A DNA stretch of 64,000 bases from Candidatus Omnitrophota bacterium (GCA_020341815.1 CP070837.1:780954-844953); one strand, 5' to 3'. Shown: positions 17,386 to 59,952, counted from the first letter of the stretch. The notes: a model not told the origin generated them from the sequence alone. A program made the numbers and translations.

Positions 17386-18129
17386 TTAATACCCCGTAAA
17401 GTTCTCTGCTTTAATTTTACCTTCGGGAAGACCTAATTTATTCTTCAGGATGCCAGTTAAGCTGCTCACCATGCCCGGCGGGCCGCAGATATAAAATACT
17501 CTTTCTTTATAATCGCCCACCTCTTCTTTTATTACTTTATCATCAATAAGCCCGACTCTTCCGGGCCATTTTTTTCTATCGATATCCTCAGAGGTCAACC
17601 CAGCCCCTGCGCGCAGGGGCTGGGTCAAGGTATAGACGATGCGAATATTTTTATTACTCCTGCTTATTCCGTCTAAATCCTCTCTAAATATAATATCTTC
17701 TTCCTTGTTGTTACCGTAAAGCAAAATTATATCTGAAGGTATGCGCTTATCTGCAACAAATTTACAAATGCTTCTTATCGGGGTTATTCCTATGCCTCCG
17801 GAAAGAAAGGCAATTTTTTCGTATTCTCCCGTAAATGTGAAAGAGCCGTAAGGCATCTTAAGCTGCGCCCAGTCACCAACCTTTAAGCCTTCAAGAGCCT
17901 TTGAAAACTCACTTTCGGTTATCCTCTTGGTAAATTCCACATAGCCCTTCTCGGTAGGAGAATTGGAAAAGGAAAAATGTTTTGTCTGTTCTTTCCCTCC
18001 TATCTTTATACTTACAAAAAAGAACTGCCCAGGCTTAAAATCTACATCCTTATTCAGCTTAAAGCGAAAACTCTTTACGTTAGGCGTTCTCTGGATTATA
18101 TCCCGCACCTCTGTCTCAAACTGAATCAA
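17386..18129 (-). CDS. FAD/NAD(P)-binding oxidoreductase (ferredoxin-NADP reductase-like)
   Basis: 247 aa; FNR-like barrel and nucleotide-binding motifs (GGIGITP, ICGPPGM); no Fe-S motif. Confidence 0.65.
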   Translation of the reverse strand: MIQFETEVRDIIQRTPNVKSFRFKLNKDVDFKPGQFFFVSIKIGGKEQTKHFSFSNSPTEKGYVEFTKRITESEFSKALEGLKVGDWAQLKMPYGSFTFTGEYEKIAFLSGGIGITPIRSICKFVADKRIPSDIILLYGNNKEEDIIFREDLDGISRSNKNIRIVYTLTQPLRAGAGLTSEDIDRKKWPGRVGLIDDKVIKEEVGDYKERVFYICGPPGMVSSLTGILKNKLGLPEGKIKAENFTGY

Positions 18130-39028: not shown

Positions 39029-40102
39029 ATGAAAAAGATAGGTAATGTAGAAGTATATATGGGGCCGCAGGAACTTAACCAGCCTGATGCCTTAGGAGAA
39101 GTCATTATTAATTTCATAAAGAAGGCAAAAAAGGCTTTATTTATTGCTGTTCAGGAACTGGATTCAGCATCAATTGCCAAGGCAATCATTGAAGCCAAAT
39201 CAAGAGGCATCTCCGTCTCTCTTATTATGGAGGCGGATTACTTGACGGTGCAAAAGCCCCTTAATGACCCCTGGCAGCTCACCGGAAAGAACGAAAAGAA
39301 CCGCGAAATCCATAATGCTTTGATGCGCGCTAAGGTAGATGTTAAAACCGACTATAACCCAAAAATCTTTCATCAAAAGTTTATAGTCAGGGACCCTCTT
39401 GGTGCGCAAGCAGCAGTCTTGACCGGCTCTACCAACTTTACCGACACAGGCACACACAGCAACCTTAATCATATCGTGATTATAAGAGGTAAAAGACACG
39501 CACAAATCTATCTGGATGAGTTTAAGGAAATGGCCACAGGCACCTTTGGACGGCTCAGGTTAAGATTTGATGCGCCCCCAAAGACTTATTCAGTCTCCGG
39601 GGTGCGCATTAAGACACTCTTTGCCCCCGACCACTCCCCTGAGATGGAAATAATGAAGCAGATGCTTAAGGCAAAGGAGCAGATAGATTTTGCGATTTTT
39701 ACCTTTGCAAAATCTTCCGGCATAGACGATACCATGGTCTCCCTTCAGAAATCAGGCATAAAAGTAAGAGGGATTTTTGACCCCGGCCAGGGTAATCAAA
39801 AATGGGCGGCTACTCGTGTATTGGCAAGCAATAAGATTAAGGTTTATCTGGCTAAAAAGAGCCCCCAATTAAATAAGCTCCATCATAAATTGATGGTAAT
39901 AGATAAACAAGTCGTTATCGCAGGCAGTTTCAATTATACCGACCCCGCCAATACGCTTAATGATGAAAATATAATCATTATCGGCGACCTTGACGAAAAA
40001 AGGAAAAACAGCATTAAGCGGCAGAAACAGATAGGCCAATATGTTTATGGCTGGATAGATAAAATGGTCAAGGATAATGGCAAATTAATCTCGAAACCGT
40101 AA
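39029..40102 (+). CDS. Phospholipase D superfamily protein with two HKD motifs
   Basis: 357 aa; HQKFIVRD...GSTNFT and HHKLMVIDKQ...GSFNYT (two HxK(x)4D...GSxN motifs); no obvious signal peptide; 14 nt after the adhesin gene. Confidence 0.75.
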   Translation: MKKIGNVEVYMGPQELNQPDALGEVIINFIKKAKKALFIAVQELDSASIAKAIIEAKSRGISVSLIMEADYLTVQKPLNDPWQLTGKNEKNREIHNALMRAKVDVKTDYNPKIFHQKFIVRDPLGAQAAVLTGSTNFTDTGTHSNLNHIVIIRGKRHAQIYLDEFKEMATGTFGRLRLRFDAPPKTYSVSGVRIKTLFAPDHSPEMEIMKQMLKAKEQIDFAIFTFAKSSGIDDTMVSLQKSGIKVRGIFDPGQGNQKWAATRVLASNKIKVYLAKKSPQLNKLHHKLMVIDKQVVIAGSFNYTDPANTLNDENIIIIGDLDEKRKNSIKRQKQIGQYVYGWIDKMVKDNGKLISKP

Positions 40103-40155
40103 CTCTCATCTGTTTTTTCCCCTTCCAAATAATAAGTCTGGAGAAAATTTTTCCC

Positions 40156-40185
40156 TTGACAAACTATTCCCCCTTTGTCTATAAT
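40156..40185 (+). promoter_or_regulatory. Consensus sigma70-type promoter upstream of the Rrf2 regulator
   Basis: TTGACA-N18-TATAAT, both hexamers perfect, about 30 nt upstream of the Rrf2 ATG. Confidence 0.5.
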
Positions 40186-40196
40186 CTCTATAGACA
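40176..40196. promoter_or_regulatory. Perfect inverted repeat TGTCTATA-N5-TATAGACA overlapping the -10; candidate Rrf2 operator
   Basis: 8-bp arms are exact reverse complements with a 5-bp spacer and overlap the TATAAT box. Confidence 0.4.
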
Positions 40197-40217
40197 ATAT
40201 AGGAAAGGAGCCGAAAA

Positions 40218-40619
40218 ATGAAACTTACCACAAAAAGCGAATATTCACTCTTAGCCCTTATGCATATTGCCCGCCACGAAAAAAACGGCTTTATAAAGAT
40301 AGAGGATATCTGCGCAAAATATGGTATCTCCAAAAAATACCTGGAGCAACTCTTTTTGATACTAAAACAGAACCGTTATCTGAAGACTAAAAGAGGCGCC
40401 TCGGGAGGGTACAAACTGGCAATACCCGCGCAAAAAATAACTGTTGCTCAAATCGCAAGGCTTATGGACGGGGCTTTGGCGCCTACGGAATCTGTGAGCA
40501 AGTATTTCTTCTCGCATACCCCCCTGGAGAAAGAAAAGAACATTATGAGAGCCTTCAAAGAAATAAGGAATTACATCTCAAATAAATTGGAAAATCTGAA
40601 GCTTACAGACTTAATCTGA
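40218..40619 (+). CDS. Rrf2-family transcriptional regulator
   Basis: 133 aa; N-terminal winged helix (MKLTTKSEYSLLALMHIARHE...). No cysteine triad, so probably not an Fe-S-binding IscR type. Confidence 0.8.
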   Translation: MKLTTKSEYSLLALMHIARHEKNGFIKIEDICAKYGISKKYLEQLFLILKQNRYLKTKRGASGGYKLAIPAQKITVAQIARLMDGALAPTESVSKYFFSHTPLEKEKNIMRAFKEIRNYISNKLENLKLTDLI

Positions 40620-40634
40620 TTAAAAGGAGAAAAA

Positions 40635-41396
40635 ATGGACCCTAAAGTGCTTCTTCTTATGCCACTGGCCTTTGTTTGCGAGTTTATTGATTCAAGTTTG
40701 GGCATGGGCTATGGCACAAGCCTCACCCCTATCTTGTTACTTATGGGCTTTGAACCACTACAGGTTGTGCCGGCTGTGCTTTTATCGGAATTTGTCTCCG
40801 GCATTACGGCTGCCTCCTTTCATCATAGCATAGAAAATGTAAGCTTTAAGCCGGGTTCCAAAGATACCAAAGTAGCTCTGGCCCTTTCGGCTTTTGCCGT
40901 TTTAGGCACAATCATAGCCGTATTCTTGGCGGTCAAGCTTCCTGCCAAAACACTCAAGCTCTGGATTGGCGCTATAGTTTTATTTATGGGCATTTTTATT
41001 CTGGCTACATTCAACCGCAAGCCCCGCTTTACATGGAGAAAGATTGCCACATTAGGAACAGTTGCCTCTTTCAATAAGGGAATGAGCGGAGGAGGTTACG
41101 GCCCTTTAGTAATGGGAGGACAGCTTCTTTCCGGAATCAGCGCCAAGAATGCCGTAGGCATCACTTCGCTTTCCGAAGGCGTAACCTGTCTTGTGGGGAT
41201 AATCTTATACTTTTTCCTGAAATCACAGGCCGATTGGACACTGGCCCCCTGGCTTATGGCGGGTGCGGTGCTTTCGGTCCCCTTAGCTGCCCATACCTTA
41301 AAAAGGCTTCCCGAAAGAAAAGTAAAGATTGCCATAGCAGTTATAATAGTTACTCTTGGATGCCTGACATTAGCTAAGGCGCTCTTCCGTGGCTAA
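40635..41396 (+). CDS. TauE/SafE-family (sulfite-exporter-like) membrane transporter
   Basis: 253 aa polytopic protein with duplicated 4-TM halves; 15 nt after Rrf2, RBS AAAAGGAG. Confidence 0.7.
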   Translation: MDPKVLLLMPLAFVCEFIDSSLGMGYGTSLTPILLLMGFEPLQVVPAVLLSEFVSGITAASFHHSIENVSFKPGSKDTKVALALSAFAVLGTIIAVFLAVKLPAKTLKLWIGAIVLFMGIFILATFNRKPRFTWRKIATLGTVASFNKGMSGGGYGPLVMGGQLLSGISAKNAVGITSLSEGVTCLVGIILYFFLKSQADWTLAPWLMAGAVLSVPLAAHTLKRLPERKVKIAIAVIIVTLGCLTLAKALFRG

Positions 41397-45912: not shown

Positions 45913-46977
45913 TTACATCCACTTCTTCTTCCTGAAGTACGCTATCATATAAATGGCAATTGCGCCGATAATAAACCACACCGCAGGATATCCGAACCGC
46001 CACTGCAACTCCGGCATATACCTGAAGTTCATTCCGTAAATACCGACAATAAAGGTCAGAGGAATAAATATCGTGGCTATAACGGTCAAGACCTTCATCA
46101 CCTCGTTCATTCTGTTGCTCACGCTGGAAAGATAAATATCCAACATGCCTGAGACTACATCCCTGTATGTCTCTATGGTATCGATGACCTGAACAGTATG
46201 GTCATATACATCGCGCAGGAATATGCGGGTTGGTTTTTTAATTAGCTTTGATTCGGAGCGCTCCAGAACACTGACTACTTCGCGCAGGGGCCAAACGGAC
46301 TTCCTTAAGAAGATGATGTCTCCTTTTAAGCGATGAATTATTTGTAAGGTTTTGGGGATGGGGTTAGCTATTATCCTCTCTTCCATGTCCCCTATTTTTT
46401 CTCCAGATTTTTCCAGAATAAGAAAATAATTATCCACGACCGCATCCATCAAGGAATAGACAAGATAATCCGCCCCTGCCCCTCTGATTCTGCTTTTGGC
46501 GTTTCTGATGCGCTCTCTTACATGATCGAATACATCGCCCTCTTTCTCCTGGAATGAAATAACAAAGTTAGAGCCTAAAACCAAACTCACCTGCTCGGCG
46601 TTGATTTCCCCTGCTTTTTCGTCAAAATAAAGCATTTTTAAAACGATAAATATATAACTTTCGAAATCTTCCAGTTTTGGCCTTTGGCCGGTATTAACGA
46701 TATCTTCCAACATCAAAGGATGAAATCCAAAGTGCTTGCCTATTTTCTCTATAATCTCTATATTGTGGATGCCGTCAATATTTATCCATGTGACTGTTGA
46801 GGTATCTCTAAAAGAAAAGCATTCCTCCGGCGCCTTTATTTCTTTCTCCTGAACTTGCTTCTCGTCATAATCGATAACTGTTATCTTTACGCGTTCGGTC
46901 CTTTTCTCTCCCACATGCATCAATGTTCCCGGGGCAAGGCCTATGGTTTTGGAAATTCTTTTAATCAATCGGGGCAT
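45913..46977 (-). CDS. corA: Magnesium/cobalt transporter CorA
   Basis: 354 aa; C-terminal two TM helices with the GMN motif (YGMNF). Confidence 0.85.
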   Translation of the reverse strand: MPRLIKRISKTIGLAPGTLMHVGEKRTERVKITVIDYDEKQVQEKEIKAPEECFSFRDTSTVTWINIDGIHNIEIIEKIGKHFGFHPLMLEDIVNTGQRPKLEDFESYIFIVLKMLYFDEKAGEINAEQVSLVLGSNFVISFQEKEGDVFDHVRERIRNAKSRIRGAGADYLVYSLMDAVVDNYFLILEKSGEKIGDMEERIIANPIPKTLQIIHRLKGDIIFLRKSVWPLREVVSVLERSESKLIKKPTRIFLRDVYDHTVQVIDTIETYRDVVSGMLDIYLSSVSNRMNEVMKVLTVIATIFIPLTFIVGIYGMNFRYMPELQWRFGYPAVWFIIGAIAIYMIAYFRKKKWM

Positions 46978-57350: not shown

Positions 57351-58306
57351 CTTCTTCTTCTGCCGAAAGGCATAAAGGGGCTGCTGGTTGTGTTATTATT
57401 TCTTGAAGGTAAATATCTTTGTGTCTTAACTATTATTTTATCCTTCAGGCTGAGCCCTGAGACAATCTCTGCATTCTTTTCATCATAAATGCCGAGTTTT
57501 ACCTTCCGCCTTAAGGGTTCCTCGCCCGGGCCCTGACTTACGGATACAAAGGCCCCCTCTTTGGTCTGCTCAATGGCCTCAAGAGGCACGATTAAGACCT
57601 CTTGTTTCTCCACCTCTACGATATCCACGTTTGCGCTCATACCTGAACGAAAGACTTCGGGTATTTCTTTCGGAAGGATATCCACTTCATAAATAGTAAC
57701 ATTATTGACAACCTCGGATTCATAAGATATGTGATCGACTTTGGCATCCACCTTTATTTGAGGATAGGCATCTAAACTCACCCGTGCCGCCTGGCCGATT
57801 TTTACTCTGCCTATATCGGTCTCATCCACCTGGGCCTTGACAATAAGGCGGTCGGATAATACAACTATGACATCGCCTGAGGCAACTGTCTGGCCCGGCT
57901 CAACTGCTCTTACGATTACTTCTGCATCAATAGGGGCTATTAAAGGAGTAGATTTGTAGGCCTCCTGCCAATACTTCAAGCTTTCTTCGCCCTGAGCGCG
58001 GGCTGCGTCTAAAAGGGCGGCCCTTTCGGTTGAGCTCATCAAGGCCAATGTCTGGCCGGCCTTTACCTTTTCCCCTTCCGAGACCATGATTTCTTCGATG
58101 CGCCCGTTAATCGGCGGCTTGATTTCCAGGCGGTTCTGCGGCTCTACTATGCCGGTAGTGGATATGAGGCTCTGGATACTGCCGATTTCAGGGGTTATTT
58201 CTCTGGCAGTCTGCAAAGGATATTTAGTGTCTTTCTTTTTCATTATTAAGACTGCCGCAGCTATTAAAATTACTAAAATAAAACAGATCTTTTTACTTCT
58301 TAACAT
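57347..58306 (-). CDS. macA: Periplasmic adaptor subunit (MacA/HlyD family)
   Basis: 319 aa; N-terminal TM anchor, biotinyl/lipoyl-like and beta-barrel adaptor sequence; 4-nt overlap with macB. Confidence 0.8.
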
Positions 58307-59549
58307 AATCCAGGGTCCCTCCTTTTGCCTGAACCCATTCGGCTTCTTTGACCAGGGTATCGGCTTTGGTATCCAAAAGGGTCTTTTTGGCGCTGGCTAA
58401 ATTATCTTCGATAATCGACCAGTCATCAAAAGAAATAAGGCCGATGGCATATTGCGCCTGGGCAATCTTGGCCCGCTCCTCGGCCGCCTCTAAAAACTTC
58501 TCTTCCACTTTTACCTTATCTATTGCATCCTGCCAGCCTTTCCAGGTATCCTCCATGGTGAAAATAACGCTATCCTTTCCGCTCCTTTCATCTGCCTGGG
58601 CCTGATTAAAGGCGGCCTTGGCCTTAGAGACCTGGGCAATGCGGTTTCCGCCTTCAAATACAGGAAGGGACAGGCTCACGCCCGCCGACCATACATCATT
58701 ATGCGGCGGCCAATGCGAATCGCTCCTTCCGGCTGAGGCGTTTGCGTACACCTCCGGAAGAAACTCCGCCTCGGCGGATTTTAAATCAAATCGAGCGGAT
58801 TCTTTTCTACTCATCAAATCCAGTAAGAAAGGATTGCTTTGGGCCAGATAATCAAAGTCCGGTCTTTGCCGGTTGGGATATTCAACCTTGAAGTCCCCTT
58901 TTGCTTTAATAGGCGTCAATTTGCTGCGGCCCAATTCATTAGTCAGCTGCCTCTGGGCCAAATCGACATTTCTCCTGGCCTGAATTACTTCGAATTCGGC
59001 CTGCCCAAGATTTGCTTCGGCATTTAATAGCGACCCCCTATGTTCTCTTCCCGCCTCATAACGCAATCTTACTAATTCCAGGTTCTGTTTTCGCCGCTGG
59101 GCTGTGCTTTCTGTAATTCCTAAAAGCTCCTGGGCTTTTAAAAGCTCAACAAACGCCTCTTTCAAGCTCAGCCTTACATTGGATGAAGTTACTTCATAAT
59201 TATATCGCGCCGATTTTACATCTTCATCGGCAGAAGATATATCGTAAGAGGTCTTGAAACCGTCAAATAATAATTGCTCTGCGCTCACGCTATAGGCATA
59301 TGTATCGGTGGTGGCACCGCTGGCGGCCTTTGCAGTTGCCCCGCTCAATGCGCTATCTATCTGCGGCAGGGCGTCACTTTTGGCAATGACTTTATCGGCT
59401 ACGGCCTGATTCAGTTGTTCCCGCGCCGATATTAAATCGGGATGGTTTCGTCTGGCCTCTTTAAGGCAATCTTCCCAGGTAAGCTCCTCTTCCGCTGCGG
59501 CATTAATCGAGAAGATAAATAAAAATATAAGGATAAATATAATACGCAT
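58293..59549 (-). CDS. tolC: TolC-family outer-membrane efflux protein
   Basis: 418 aa; signal peptide and two-repeat coiled-coil/beta-barrel organisation typical of outer membrane factors. Confidence 0.8.
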   Translation of the reverse strand: MRIIFILIFLFIFSINAAAEEELTWEDCLKEARRNHPDLISAREQLNQAVADKVIAKSDALPQIDSALSGATAKAASGATTDTYAYSVSAEQLLFDGFKTSYDISSADEDVKSARYNYEVTSSNVRLSLKEAFVELLKAQELLGITESTAQRRKQNLELVRLRYEAGREHRGSLLNAEANLGQAEFEVIQARRNVDLAQRQLTNELGRSKLTPIKAKGDFKVEYPNRQRPDFDYLAQSNPFLLDLMSRKESARFDLKSAEAEFLPEVYANASAGRSDSHWPPHNDVWSAGVSLSLPVFEGGNRIAQVSKAKAAFNQAQADERSGKDSVIFTMEDTWKGWQDAIDKVKVEEKFLEAAEERAKIAQAQYAIGLISFDDWSIIEDNLASAKKTLLDTKADTLVKEAEWVQAKGGTLDYVKK

Positions 59550-59554
59550 CTTAC

Positions 59555-59794
59555 TTAATTTTTATTTGAGATTTCTGCTTTTAGCGTAGATATGTGCTTT
59601 TCAAAGTGAGACAAGAATTGGCTAAAGTCATCAGCCGGGAAAAAGCCGACCATCTTTTTGCCGGGATGCCCTGAGGTCACAATGAGCTTGTCACCCGCTT
59701 TAATGGTAAGCATTTTCCTCACCTCTTTAGGGATGACCACCTGTCCCCTTGCCCCCACTCTCACCAAGCCGTAAAACTTAGGAAACTTATGCAT
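59555..59794 (-). CDS. AbrB/MazE/SpoVT-family DNA-binding protein
   Basis: 79 aa; swapped-hairpin signature VRVGARGQVVIPKEVRKMLTIKAGDKL; first gene of the tolC-macA-macB operon. Confidence 0.7.
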   Translation of the reverse strand: MHKFPKFYGLVRVGARGQVVIPKEVRKMLTIKAGDKLIVTSGHPGKKMVGFFPADDFSQFLSHFEKHISTLKAEISNKN

Positions 59795-59811
59795 TTGTCC
59801 TCCCGTTTTTA

Positions 59812-59845
59812 GTATGATTTGTATGATAAATCATATTTATCATAC
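59812..59845. promoter_or_regulatory. Four 9-bp-phased heptamer repeats (GTATGAT x2, then ATCATAT/ATCATAC); candidate operator
   Basis: GTATGAT at 59812..59818 and 59821..59827, inverted copies at 59830..59836 and 59839..59845; lies between the candidate -10 and the AbrB RBS. Confidence 0.4.
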
Positions 59846-59847
59846 AT

Positions 59848-59876
59848 AATATATCCTCTCTTTCGCCGCTTGTCAA
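59848..59876 (-). promoter_or_regulatory. Candidate promoter of the AbrB-tolC-macAB operon
   Basis: Minus strand reads TTGACA-N17-TATATT. Confidence 0.45.
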
Positions 59877-59888
59877 TATAAATTGCAG

Positions 59889-59923
59889 GATAAAATAAAA
59901 ACCCTGTACCGTACGGTACAGGG
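59889..59923 (-). terminator. Rho-independent terminator downstream of parA (perfect 22-bp palindrome plus U-tract)
   Basis: CCCTGTACCGTACGGTACAGGG is an exact palindrome; on the minus strand it is followed by TTTTTATTTTAT, about 30 nt after the parA stop. Confidence 0.6.
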
Positions 59924-59952
59924 TTTGGTTCAACATGGCTCCCCGGGGCTTC

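Follow-up and report, generated by a model that had tools for sequence, protein, structure and literature searches.

IscR, the iron–sulfur (Fe–S) regulator of the Rrf2 family, classically controls its own gene via a palindrome in the promoter. NsrR, which carries a [4Fe–4S] cluster and senses nitric oxide, binds a 23 bp dyad in the ScNsrR–hmpA1 complex (PDB entry 7b0c), with contacts by the recognition helix near ±4 to 8 and by the wing near ±9 to 11 (PMC9338935). CymR, the repressor of cysteine metabolism in B. subtilis and S. aureus, likewise has an Rrf2 fold without Fe–S cysteine ligands, and its regulon covers ssu and other sulfur-uptake genes (PMC3519770). Operons of the CstR/BigR type (compare cst/tauE of S. 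aureus) also place the gene of a small, sulfide-responsive repressor together with a TauE/SafE gene, but there the repressor is a CsoR- or ArsR-family protein whose cysteines detect persulfides. Large Rrf2 clusters without conserved cysteine and histidine residues have been acknowledged as uncharacterised (PMC9218516). Here we analyse a regulator without such ligands, encoded in a stretch of 64 000 nucleotides from Candidatus Omnitrophota bacterium (GCA_020341815.1, CP070837.1:780954–844953; 'the window' below), in which a promoter carrying an inverted repeat over its −10 hexamer (positions 40156–40196) precedes a gene for an Rrf2-family regulator, rrf2, and a gene for a TauE/SafE permease, tauE.

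We read this element as the promoter–operator of an autorepressed two-gene operon, rrf2–tauE, and from the comparisons presented below we put the probability of this reading at roughly 75%. The feature is real, and it is an uncharacterised new subfamily of a well known kind of switch; a literature search found no description of the clade, of the motif TCTATAGAC, of an Rrf2–TauE pairing of this type or of Rrf2 regulators in Omnitrophota.

The promoter and its conserved palindrome

A reading of the window made from the sequence alone (the sequence-only reading) had described TTGACA-N18-TATAAT as a perfect match at both hexamers, with an exact 8 bp inverted repeat over the −10. Both observations hold. 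The promoter scan returns a score of 12/12 at 40156–40185, direct reading of the window gives a spacer of 18 nt, and TTGACA-N16–19-TATAAT occurs once in the 64 kb window, compared with 0.02 expected from shuffles. Both hexamers of this sigma-70-type promoter, with a spacer of 16–19 nt, are kept in 37 orthologous sites, where the spacer is mostly 17 nt, the 18 nt of the window being the exception; a T-rich tract 5′ of the −35, at −37 to −33 from the palindrome centre, is also kept in these 37 non-redundant promoters. The arms of the repeat, TGTCTATA (40176–40183) and TATAGACA (40189–40196), flank ATCTC (40184–40188), and one extra pair lengthens them to 9+9 bp (TTGTCTATA/TATAGACAA), so that 40175–40197 forms a 23 bp palindrome (11-1-11). 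This exact palindrome is unique within the window. Inverted repeats as such are common there (62 pairs for an 8 nt seed and a gap of up to 12 nt between the arms), and the significance of this one therefore rests on its conservation.

Related loci were collected by a genome scan (19 loci) and a metagenome scan (80 more, from at least 567 relatives), and exact-protein look-ups supplied three further loci. The same palindrome lies 5′ of about 45 rrf2 orthologues (60–89% identity), 20–50 nt before the start codon and at a fixed distance from TTGACA. The sequence-only reading had itself proposed conservation upstream of orthologous rrf2 genes as the test of its idea that the repeat occupies the position of a repressor operator; the repeat is found there, which speaks for the idea, and both this conservation and the fixed distance to the −35 tie it to rrf2. 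The profile built from the 37 non-redundant orthologous sites has the consensus TTGTCTATAATGTCTATAGACAAAnTAGAnAA at a set distance from TTGACA. Among the orthologues, T−6, A−5, T+5 and A+8 are 100% fixed and G+7 reaches 97%, and a number of bases that played no part in site selection are conserved as well (T−11, T−1, T+1, C+2, T+14, A+15, A+17, A+19 and A+20).

The operator occurs whichever gene comes after rrf2, be it tauE, a Pst-like or Ssu-like ATP-binding cassette (ABC) system or a trio of genes for an ABC ATPase, a CobW-like GTPase and an 'FeS' protein; on this comparison, the motif travels with rrf2 and not with tauE. A sister clade of Rrf2 proteins with three loop cysteines (see below) has an operator variant, AGTCnATTGA-N3-TGTCGAC, in the same 19 bp frame and just past the −10. 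The outer GTC-N13-GAC frame is shared by the two clades and the inner bases differ, which indicates that the motif and the Rrf2 protein clade change together. Eleven of the related loci (L002, L005 and L007–L015) have rrf2 loci 68–74% identical to the Omnitrophota locus on differently labelled contigs, the labels of the metagenome-assembled genomes being Pirellulales, Doudnabacteria, Saccharibacteria, Gracilibacteria or Patescibacteria; mis-binning or horizontal transfer are possible reasons.

To measure specificity, a weight matrix was built from orthologous sites only, leaving out the window's own site. The latter scores 34.6 bits, compared with a maximum of 12.6 bits in 20 shuffled windows, and is the sole site in 64 kb, the matrix scan finding no further operator copies in the window that would make up a regulon. 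In 481 kb of related loci, just 12 matches of at least 13 bits lie beyond rrf2 promoters, in eight loci: seven are located after rrf2 and ahead of the transporter gene that follows it (L070, L078, L088, L091, L099 and, weakly, L017), and five are 5′ of a gene preceding rrf2 (L036, where this gene encodes a Usp-family protein, and L013). A possible second operator at 46736–46767 was rejected as a chance match: it scores 8.4 bits, within the shuffle range, lacks TAGAC and lies inside corA, where an exact 15-mer of the operator core (TCTATAATCTCTATA; 46746–46760) encodes IEIIE on the minus strand.

These data bear on two other explanations of the palindrome. It might be bound by another regulator, for example a global one, with rrf2 adjacent only incidentally; short A/T-rich palindromes are indeed common in the window, and binding by the Rrf2 product is a prediction. 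We nevertheless find this highly improbable, as the motif accompanies rrf2 in about 45 loci despite differing downstream genes, shifts when the Rrf2 clade shifts, has no second copy in the window and has almost none off rrf2 operons in the 481 kb. An action as RNA, be it a hairpin that terminates the PLD-like gene upstream or a folded 5′ leader, can scarcely be credited. The minimum-free-energy fold of 40095–40225 does contain a 9 bp stem with a 5 nt loop (z-score −2.5), but no U-run follows the stem and the terminator scan makes no call; the predicted start falls inside the hairpin, so that the operon transcript would lack the 5′ arm; the orthologue bases are fixed and do not covary, with the unpaired flanks and a fourth half-site also conserved; and the 64 kb window holds no match to any Rfam family at its gathering score.

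The repeat noticed at first is real but is only a part of the conserved element, which spans about 32 bp (40175–40206) and contains four half-sites of the GTCTA/TAGAC type (Table 1). Two 23 bp sites, A and B, can be laid out on it, which jointly form a 32 bp palindrome about 40190/40191. This is also the strongest dyad axis across the orthologues, 4.5 bp downstream of the repeat centre at 40186: with 16 nt arms, the mean palindromic fraction is 0.62 there compared with 0.55 at 40186, although the alignment had been anchored on the 8 bp repeat. A separate repeat search returned arms at 40179–40194 and 40187–40202 that are 88% complementary. Site B recurs in the orthologues: shifted by +9 and read on the other strand, 17 of 36 operators score at least 13 bits, whereas all other offsets are strongly negative for a second site. 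In each 23 bp dyad, conservation at ±3 to ±11 agrees with the contacts in the ScNsrR–hmpA1 complex, with which the locus shares the 23 bp dyad geometry, the predicted contact positions of ±4 to ±11 and the wing motif of the regulator (PMC9338935); the Omnitrophota operator differs in adding an overlapping mirror-image dyad. In sequence terms, the operator thus reads as two overlapping 23 bp Rrf2-type sites over the −10 and the predicted start. We regard site A as the putative basic dimer site, since its outer GTC-N13-GAC frame persists in the sister clade; site B may be a second register or the site of a second dimer.

The Rrf2 protein and its clade

The protein matches PF02082 (E = 1e-28, 100.3 bits against a cut-off of 30, residues 3–133) and, at 105.6 bits against a cut-off of 73.3, TIGR00738, which places it in the Rrf2 superfamily. 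Its sequence is identical to an NCBI entry of a Candidatus Omnitrophota metagenome-assembled genome (1.55 Mb contig). It scores below the NCBIfam equivalog cut-offs for IscR (76.5 against 207.55), NsrR (43.9 against 182), RirA (48.8 against 193), CymR (NF047409; 73.8 against 195) and HypR (19.8 against 180). A Pfam Sp-DndD match covering only residues 28–58 was discarded as sub-threshold (25.7 against 27.2 bits). The best sequence match in the PDB is IscR of Thermincola potens (PDB entry 4cic; E = 1.9e-18, residues 1–132), followed by S. aureus CymR (PDB entry 3t8r).

An AlphaFold model with a predicted local distance difference test score (pLDDT) of 83.7 shows the winged helix–turn–helix and the long dimerisation helix expected of Rrf2 (helices 6–19, 28–35 and 39–51, wing 55–67 and helix 107–126); the sensor loop is modelled with low confidence, residues 91–96 having a pLDDT below 50. 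At E ≤ 0.001, Foldseek matches regulators of the Rrf2 family, or Rrf2-like ones, and nothing else, headed by B. subtilis CymR (PDB entry 2y75; TM-score 0.76) and S. aureus CymR (PDB entries 3t8r and 3t8t), with IscR structures after them. CymR is thus the best structural match to the model, yet the identity in the fold-search alignments is 27–30%, and the Omnitrophota regulator has a distinct loop signature, DGALAPTESVSKYFF. The wing motif Gx2GGx2L, as defined for the family (PMC9338935), is present, with G60, G63, G64 and L67 invariant.

That the regulator lacks the cysteine ligands of IscR and NsrR, as had been stated from the sequence, is confirmed: its single cysteine is C32, and none lies within residues 84–110, where IscR and NsrR have their Fe–S ligands. 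A thiol switch via C32 was considered and rejected, because this residue is invariant only in the closest relatives, is absent from L017 and L018, and many clade members have no cysteine at all. The thiol-switch members of the family (HypR, SaiR, SifR and S. aureus CymR with Cys25) have a conserved redox cysteine, which the Omnitrophota clade does not. Judged from the residues present, the releasing signal is neither an Fe–S cluster nor a conserved thiol. By the same sequence measures, the protein also falls outside the IscR, NsrR, RirA and RsrR groups, since it is without the ligand residues and scores short of the cut-offs.

The loop that replaces the ligand-bearing one is strongly conserved in the clade, as DG[AP]LAP[TV][ED]S[VA]S.YF[FY]..TP[LI]E. 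We took sensor loops from 98 loci, two of which gave no match. Three loop cysteines occur only in the sister clade (L092–L095 and L097–L099), the other matched loci having none or one. This sister clade, 36–41% identical, retains a C-x8-C-x5-C pattern of the IscR type where the cysteine-free clade has Ser92 and Thr101. These two residues align to positions 92 and 101 of 4cic; the cluster ligands of that protein are the cysteines C92, C101 and C107, mutated to serine in the crystal structure. Position 8 is an invariant glutamate in the clade; the matching position gives the partner-subunit cluster ligand in other members of the family (Asp8 in NsrR and Glu8 in RsrR). Because the sister clade retains C-x8-C-x5-C in the same loop, the cysteine-free clade looks like a descendant of an IscR-like Fe–S sensor that now reads another signal. 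Compared with IscR itself, apo-IscR of the T. potens type being the nearest by sequence in the PDB, the Omnitrophota regulator is without the Cys/His ligand set, so that no Fe–S cluster is predicted, and rrf2 is not adjacent to any isc or suf genes.

The cysteine-free clade comprises more than 1,500 protein clusters at 90% identity (E ≤ 1e-20), most of them from Omnitrophota or other uncultivated anaerobes. JGI pipelines label relatives 'cysteine metabolism repressor'. The GTCTA/TAGAC consensus presumably differs from the published CymR box.

Genes downstream of rrf2

The second gene of the putative operon encodes a protein that matches PF01925 (E = 4e-33, 115.6 bits against a cut-off of 32.6, residues 9–243); neither an NCBIfam equivalog nor a solved homologue was found for it. 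The gap of 15 nt after rrf2 holds a ribosome-binding site, and the promoter and terminator scan finds no promoter-like or terminator-like site between the two genes, in keeping with the co-transcription of an Rrf2 regulator and a TauE/SafE protein that had been predicted from the sequence. The upstream neighbour is a two-domain PLD-like (NucT/DrmC-like) gene and the downstream neighbour is a convergent radical-SAM gene.

We tallied the gene that follows rrf2 over non-duplicate loci of at least 60% identity with enough downstream sequence, 37 of which were informative. TauE follows in 21 of these, a PstS-like/PstC/PstA/PstB ABC system in eight, an SsuA-family ABC system in three (212 bits against a cut-off of 163.5), and a methyltransferase with an FNT channel in one; the remaining four have other genes. 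The link of rrf2 to anion transporters is robust across these loci. More distant members add further partners, namely a DASS protein (sodium:sulfate symporter family), a cystathionine gamma-synthase/lyase-family enzyme (a pyridoxal phosphate (PLP) enzyme of Cys/Met metabolism) and Porin_O_P proteins, and in L101 a metallo-beta-lactamase–rhodanese (Blh-like) fusion lies directly 5′ of rrf2. DUF2490 proteins come after TauE as well as after the Pst-like system. NCBIfam 'Sao' matches for the Ssu-like ABC system were discarded as far under the cut-offs; the associated papers concern selenoprotein families.

The Pst-like binding protein, which has PstC/A/B-type partners beside it, scores under the PstS cut-offs, and its invariant motifs SGAWALYP, AGGAGKG and RSDACGAA replace the phosphate-contacting Ser/Thr motifs. 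No PhoU gene was seen beside the Pst-like systems, and the binding-protein genes are often flanked by DUF2490 or Porin_O_P genes. From these motifs and scores, the substrate of this PstS-like clade is probably not phosphate. A Pst-like ABC system also adjoins rrf2 in four loci of the sister clade (L094, L095, L097 and L099); in L094 a Porin_O_P gene comes before it, and in L095 an apparently similar open reading frame (ORF).

In another four loci (L102, L103, L079 and L084), rrf2 is followed by genes for an ABC ATPase without a permease, a CobW/HypB-like GTPase and a 215-residue PF04060 'FeS' protein, and in L053, on a contig that ends early, the ABC ATPase of this trio alone is visible. The same operator stands 5′ of rrf2 ahead of the trio in L102 and L103.

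Two kinds of smaller gene accompany some of the loci. A conserved family of small ORFs of 89–102 residues (MPPPTKSRIFFDENT..AEKWSL..IFIKLD..) adjoins tauE, separating it from rrf2 in some loci and coming after it in L032, and is duplicated at times; the one member scanned (L031, 4857–5135) gave no Pfam match. S-adenosylmethionine-dependent methyltransferase genes stand between rrf2 and anion-transporter genes in L003 (4366–5145), where the protein has weak TehB/TPMT-like matches and its gene is flanked by two TauE genes, and in L013 (3470–4354), where an LCM-like protein is encoded ahead of an FNT channel gene.

Table 1. Features of the rrf2–tauE locus in the window and of accompanying genes in related loci; positions without a locus number are those of the window.
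Feature	Position	Strand	Remark
A/T tract AAAATTTTT	40144–40152	+	UP-element-like, immediately 5′ of −35; T-rich tract in orthologues; putative function
−35 hexamer TTGACA	40156–40161	+	Read directly; conserved in orthologues
−10 hexamer TATAAT	40180–40185	+	Within operator half-site 1; read directly, promoter scan
Predicted transcription start (A or G)	40192–40193	+	7–8 nt past −10, within operator; from sigma-70 geometry
Candidate operator site A, TTGTCTATAAT-C-TCTATAGACAA	40175–40197		Centre 40186; 34.6 bits, orthologue-only matrix
Candidate operator site B	40184–40206	−	Mirror-image 23 bp site overlapping site A; centre 40195; 22.6 bits
Half-site GTCTA	40177–40181		Site A
Half-site CTCTA	40186–40190		Site B
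Half-site TAGAC	40191–40195		Site A
Half-site TAGGA	40200–40204		Site B
AGGAG, rrf2 ribosome-binding site	40206–40210	+	7 nt 5′ of ATG at 40218
rrf2	40218–40619	+	133-residue Rrf2-family regulator, cysteine-ligand-free clade; loop DGALAPTESVSKYFFSHTPL, residues 84–103
AAGGAG, tauE ribosome-binding site	40624–40629	+	In 15 nt gap after rrf2; direct reading
tauE	40635–41396	+	253-residue TauE/SafE (TSUP) permease, second operon gene; PF01925
PstS-like binding-protein clade	L002 2856–3830; L008 3487–4449; L042 4419–5381		And eight others
ABC-ATPase/CobW/FeS trio	L102 8451–10627; L103 8447–10614		
Small ORFs	L011 3517–3786; L023 912–1193; L029 1214–1498; L034 557–832		
Small ORFs, paired	L031 4543–4818 + 4857–5135; L032 5295–5603 + 5645–5920		

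Proposed switch, transported anion and significance

The near-consensus sigma-70-type promoter would drive strong transcription of rrf2–tauE. The Rrf2 product, as a dimeric winged-helix protein, would bind the GTCTA/TAGAC half-sites over the −10 and the start, and the bound dimer would occlude RNA polymerase; the overlapping dyads at 40186 and 40195 may offer two alternative registers or allow two dimers to bind. In this the regulator would resemble repressors of the IscR, NsrR and CymR type. The outcome would be negative autoregulation, which would also set the level of the co-transcribed TauE permease, until some effector of the kind left by the exclusions above, neither an Fe–S cluster nor a conserved thiol, releases the repressor.

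The sequence-only reading had called TauE an exporter and had taken it to hint at the export of sulfur compounds or anions. The family assignment stands, as does the link to anions, but export, which for TauE/SafE permeases would be that of sulfite or sulfoacetate, is doubtful. Binding-protein-dependent ABC systems are importers, and these, or a DASS symporter, occupy the same position in other loci. Sulfate uptake by a TauE-family protein has moreover been established by experiment (PMC11535334). Since ABC importers hold its position elsewhere and a TauE-family sulfate importer is known, we infer that TauE is an importer: the term 'exporter' is probably wrong, and by gene neighbourhood the operon most likely serves anion uptake. 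The anion probably contains sulfur, with sulfate, sulfite, thiosulfate or a sulfonate as candidates, a reading favoured because an Ssu-like ABC system, DASS, a Cys/Met PLP enzyme, a rhodanese fusion and TSUP proteins are found among the neighbours. That the system as a whole governs the uptake of a sulfur compound is a tentative assignment, to which we give somewhat less than even odds. On that assignment, the regulator would be a CymR-like repressor governing sulfur supply and descended from an IscR-like Fe–S ancestor. The likeness to the CymR regulon lies in the Ssu-like, TSUP, DASS and Cys/Met PLP partners, and here Pst-like systems and the CobW/FeS trio come in addition.

Several observations weigh against the picture of an autorepressed operon for sulfur uptake. 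Bacillus cymR is reported to be constitutive and not autoregulated (PMC3519770), unlike the Omnitrophota rrf2, whose promoter itself has a candidate operator. No sulfur-assimilation genes lie within 10 kb of the locus in this genome, nor does cysK, whose product complexes with CymR to allow O-acetylserine-responsive DNA binding. A PstSCAB-like system is the second commonest partner, at times with a protein of the phosphate-selective-porin family, and could indicate phosphate or another oxyanion, while the ABC-ATPase/CobW/FeS trio points to metal or Fe–S metabolism. As for the operator, two dimers bound with a centre-to-centre distance of 9 bp would share almost one face of the helix; their co-occupancy is thus uncertain and may be sterically impossible.

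A different physiology behind the same autoregulated operator, such as a response to phosphate or another oxyanion, to Fe–S or metal status, or the export of a toxic anion (sulfite), accordingly deserves consideration, although it seems to us rather unlikely. Beyond the Pst-like partners and the trio, it draws on the IscR-type loop retained by the sister clade and on the metallo-beta-lactamase–rhodanese gene of L101, which recalls CstR/BigR-type operons; in these, an enzyme of this kind goes together with sulfite efflux of the TauE type. The phosphate version sits badly with a binding protein that falls under the PstS cut-offs, has its phosphate motifs replaced and is seen without PhoU. An export-only version is a misfit with ABC importers that are interchangeable with TauE in the Rrf2 loci, a point in which these loci differ from CstR/BigR-type operons, as they do in having an Rrf2 repressor without a conserved cysteine. 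Sulfur, for its part, is in keeping with the Ssu-family ABC system, the DASS protein and the Cys/Met PLP enzyme. We retain the autorepressed rrf2–tauE operon as the preferred reading, with uptake of a sulfur compound as its tentative purpose.

A bolder proposal, which we consider unlikely, is that the Fe–S pocket of an IscR ancestor was rebuilt with Ser, Thr, Tyr and Glu residues (E8, E91, S92, S94, Y96 and T101) and now binds an oxyanion or a sulfur metabolite directly, and that the four-half-site operator then controls interchangeable importers of that one substrate (the TSUP clade, a new PstS-like family with an invariant cysteine in RSDACGAA, the Ssu-like ABC system and DASS). If true, several uncharacterised transporter families would together gain a substrate and a role in uptake.

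Elsewhere in the window, a second promoter-plus-operator candidate lies on the minus strand at 59795–59952, with genes at 59555–59794 and 58293–59549 downstream. A perfect 14/14 hairpin with a T-run (59899–59926) follows a ParA/MinD-like gene; after it come TTGACA-N17-TATATT and a 19 nt inverted repeat (59813–59853), both directly 5′ of a gene for a 79-residue MazE/AbrB-fold protein and an OEP/TolC-like gene. A perfect 14+14 bp palindrome (ACCCAGCCCCTGCG/CGCAGGGGCTGGGT; 17598–17625) lies within an FAD/NAD-binding oxidoreductase gene (17386–18129, minus strand).

A repressor that occludes its own promoter is a textbook mechanism, and Fe–S regulators of the Rrf2 family are well understood; the large clades without cysteine ligands are not (PMC9218516). 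For such a cysteine-free clade, the locus defines an operator consensus and an architecture, together with target genes that form a consistent group. The data come from uncultivated phyla without genetics, and the system is tractable in vitro, with one small protein, one 32 bp site and few candidate ligands. TSUP transporters are very widespread, yet little is known of them as a family, and the locus is valuable mainly as a way towards the signal that cysteine-free Rrf2 regulators read and towards the cargo of the TSUP and PstS-like families in uncultivated anaerobes.

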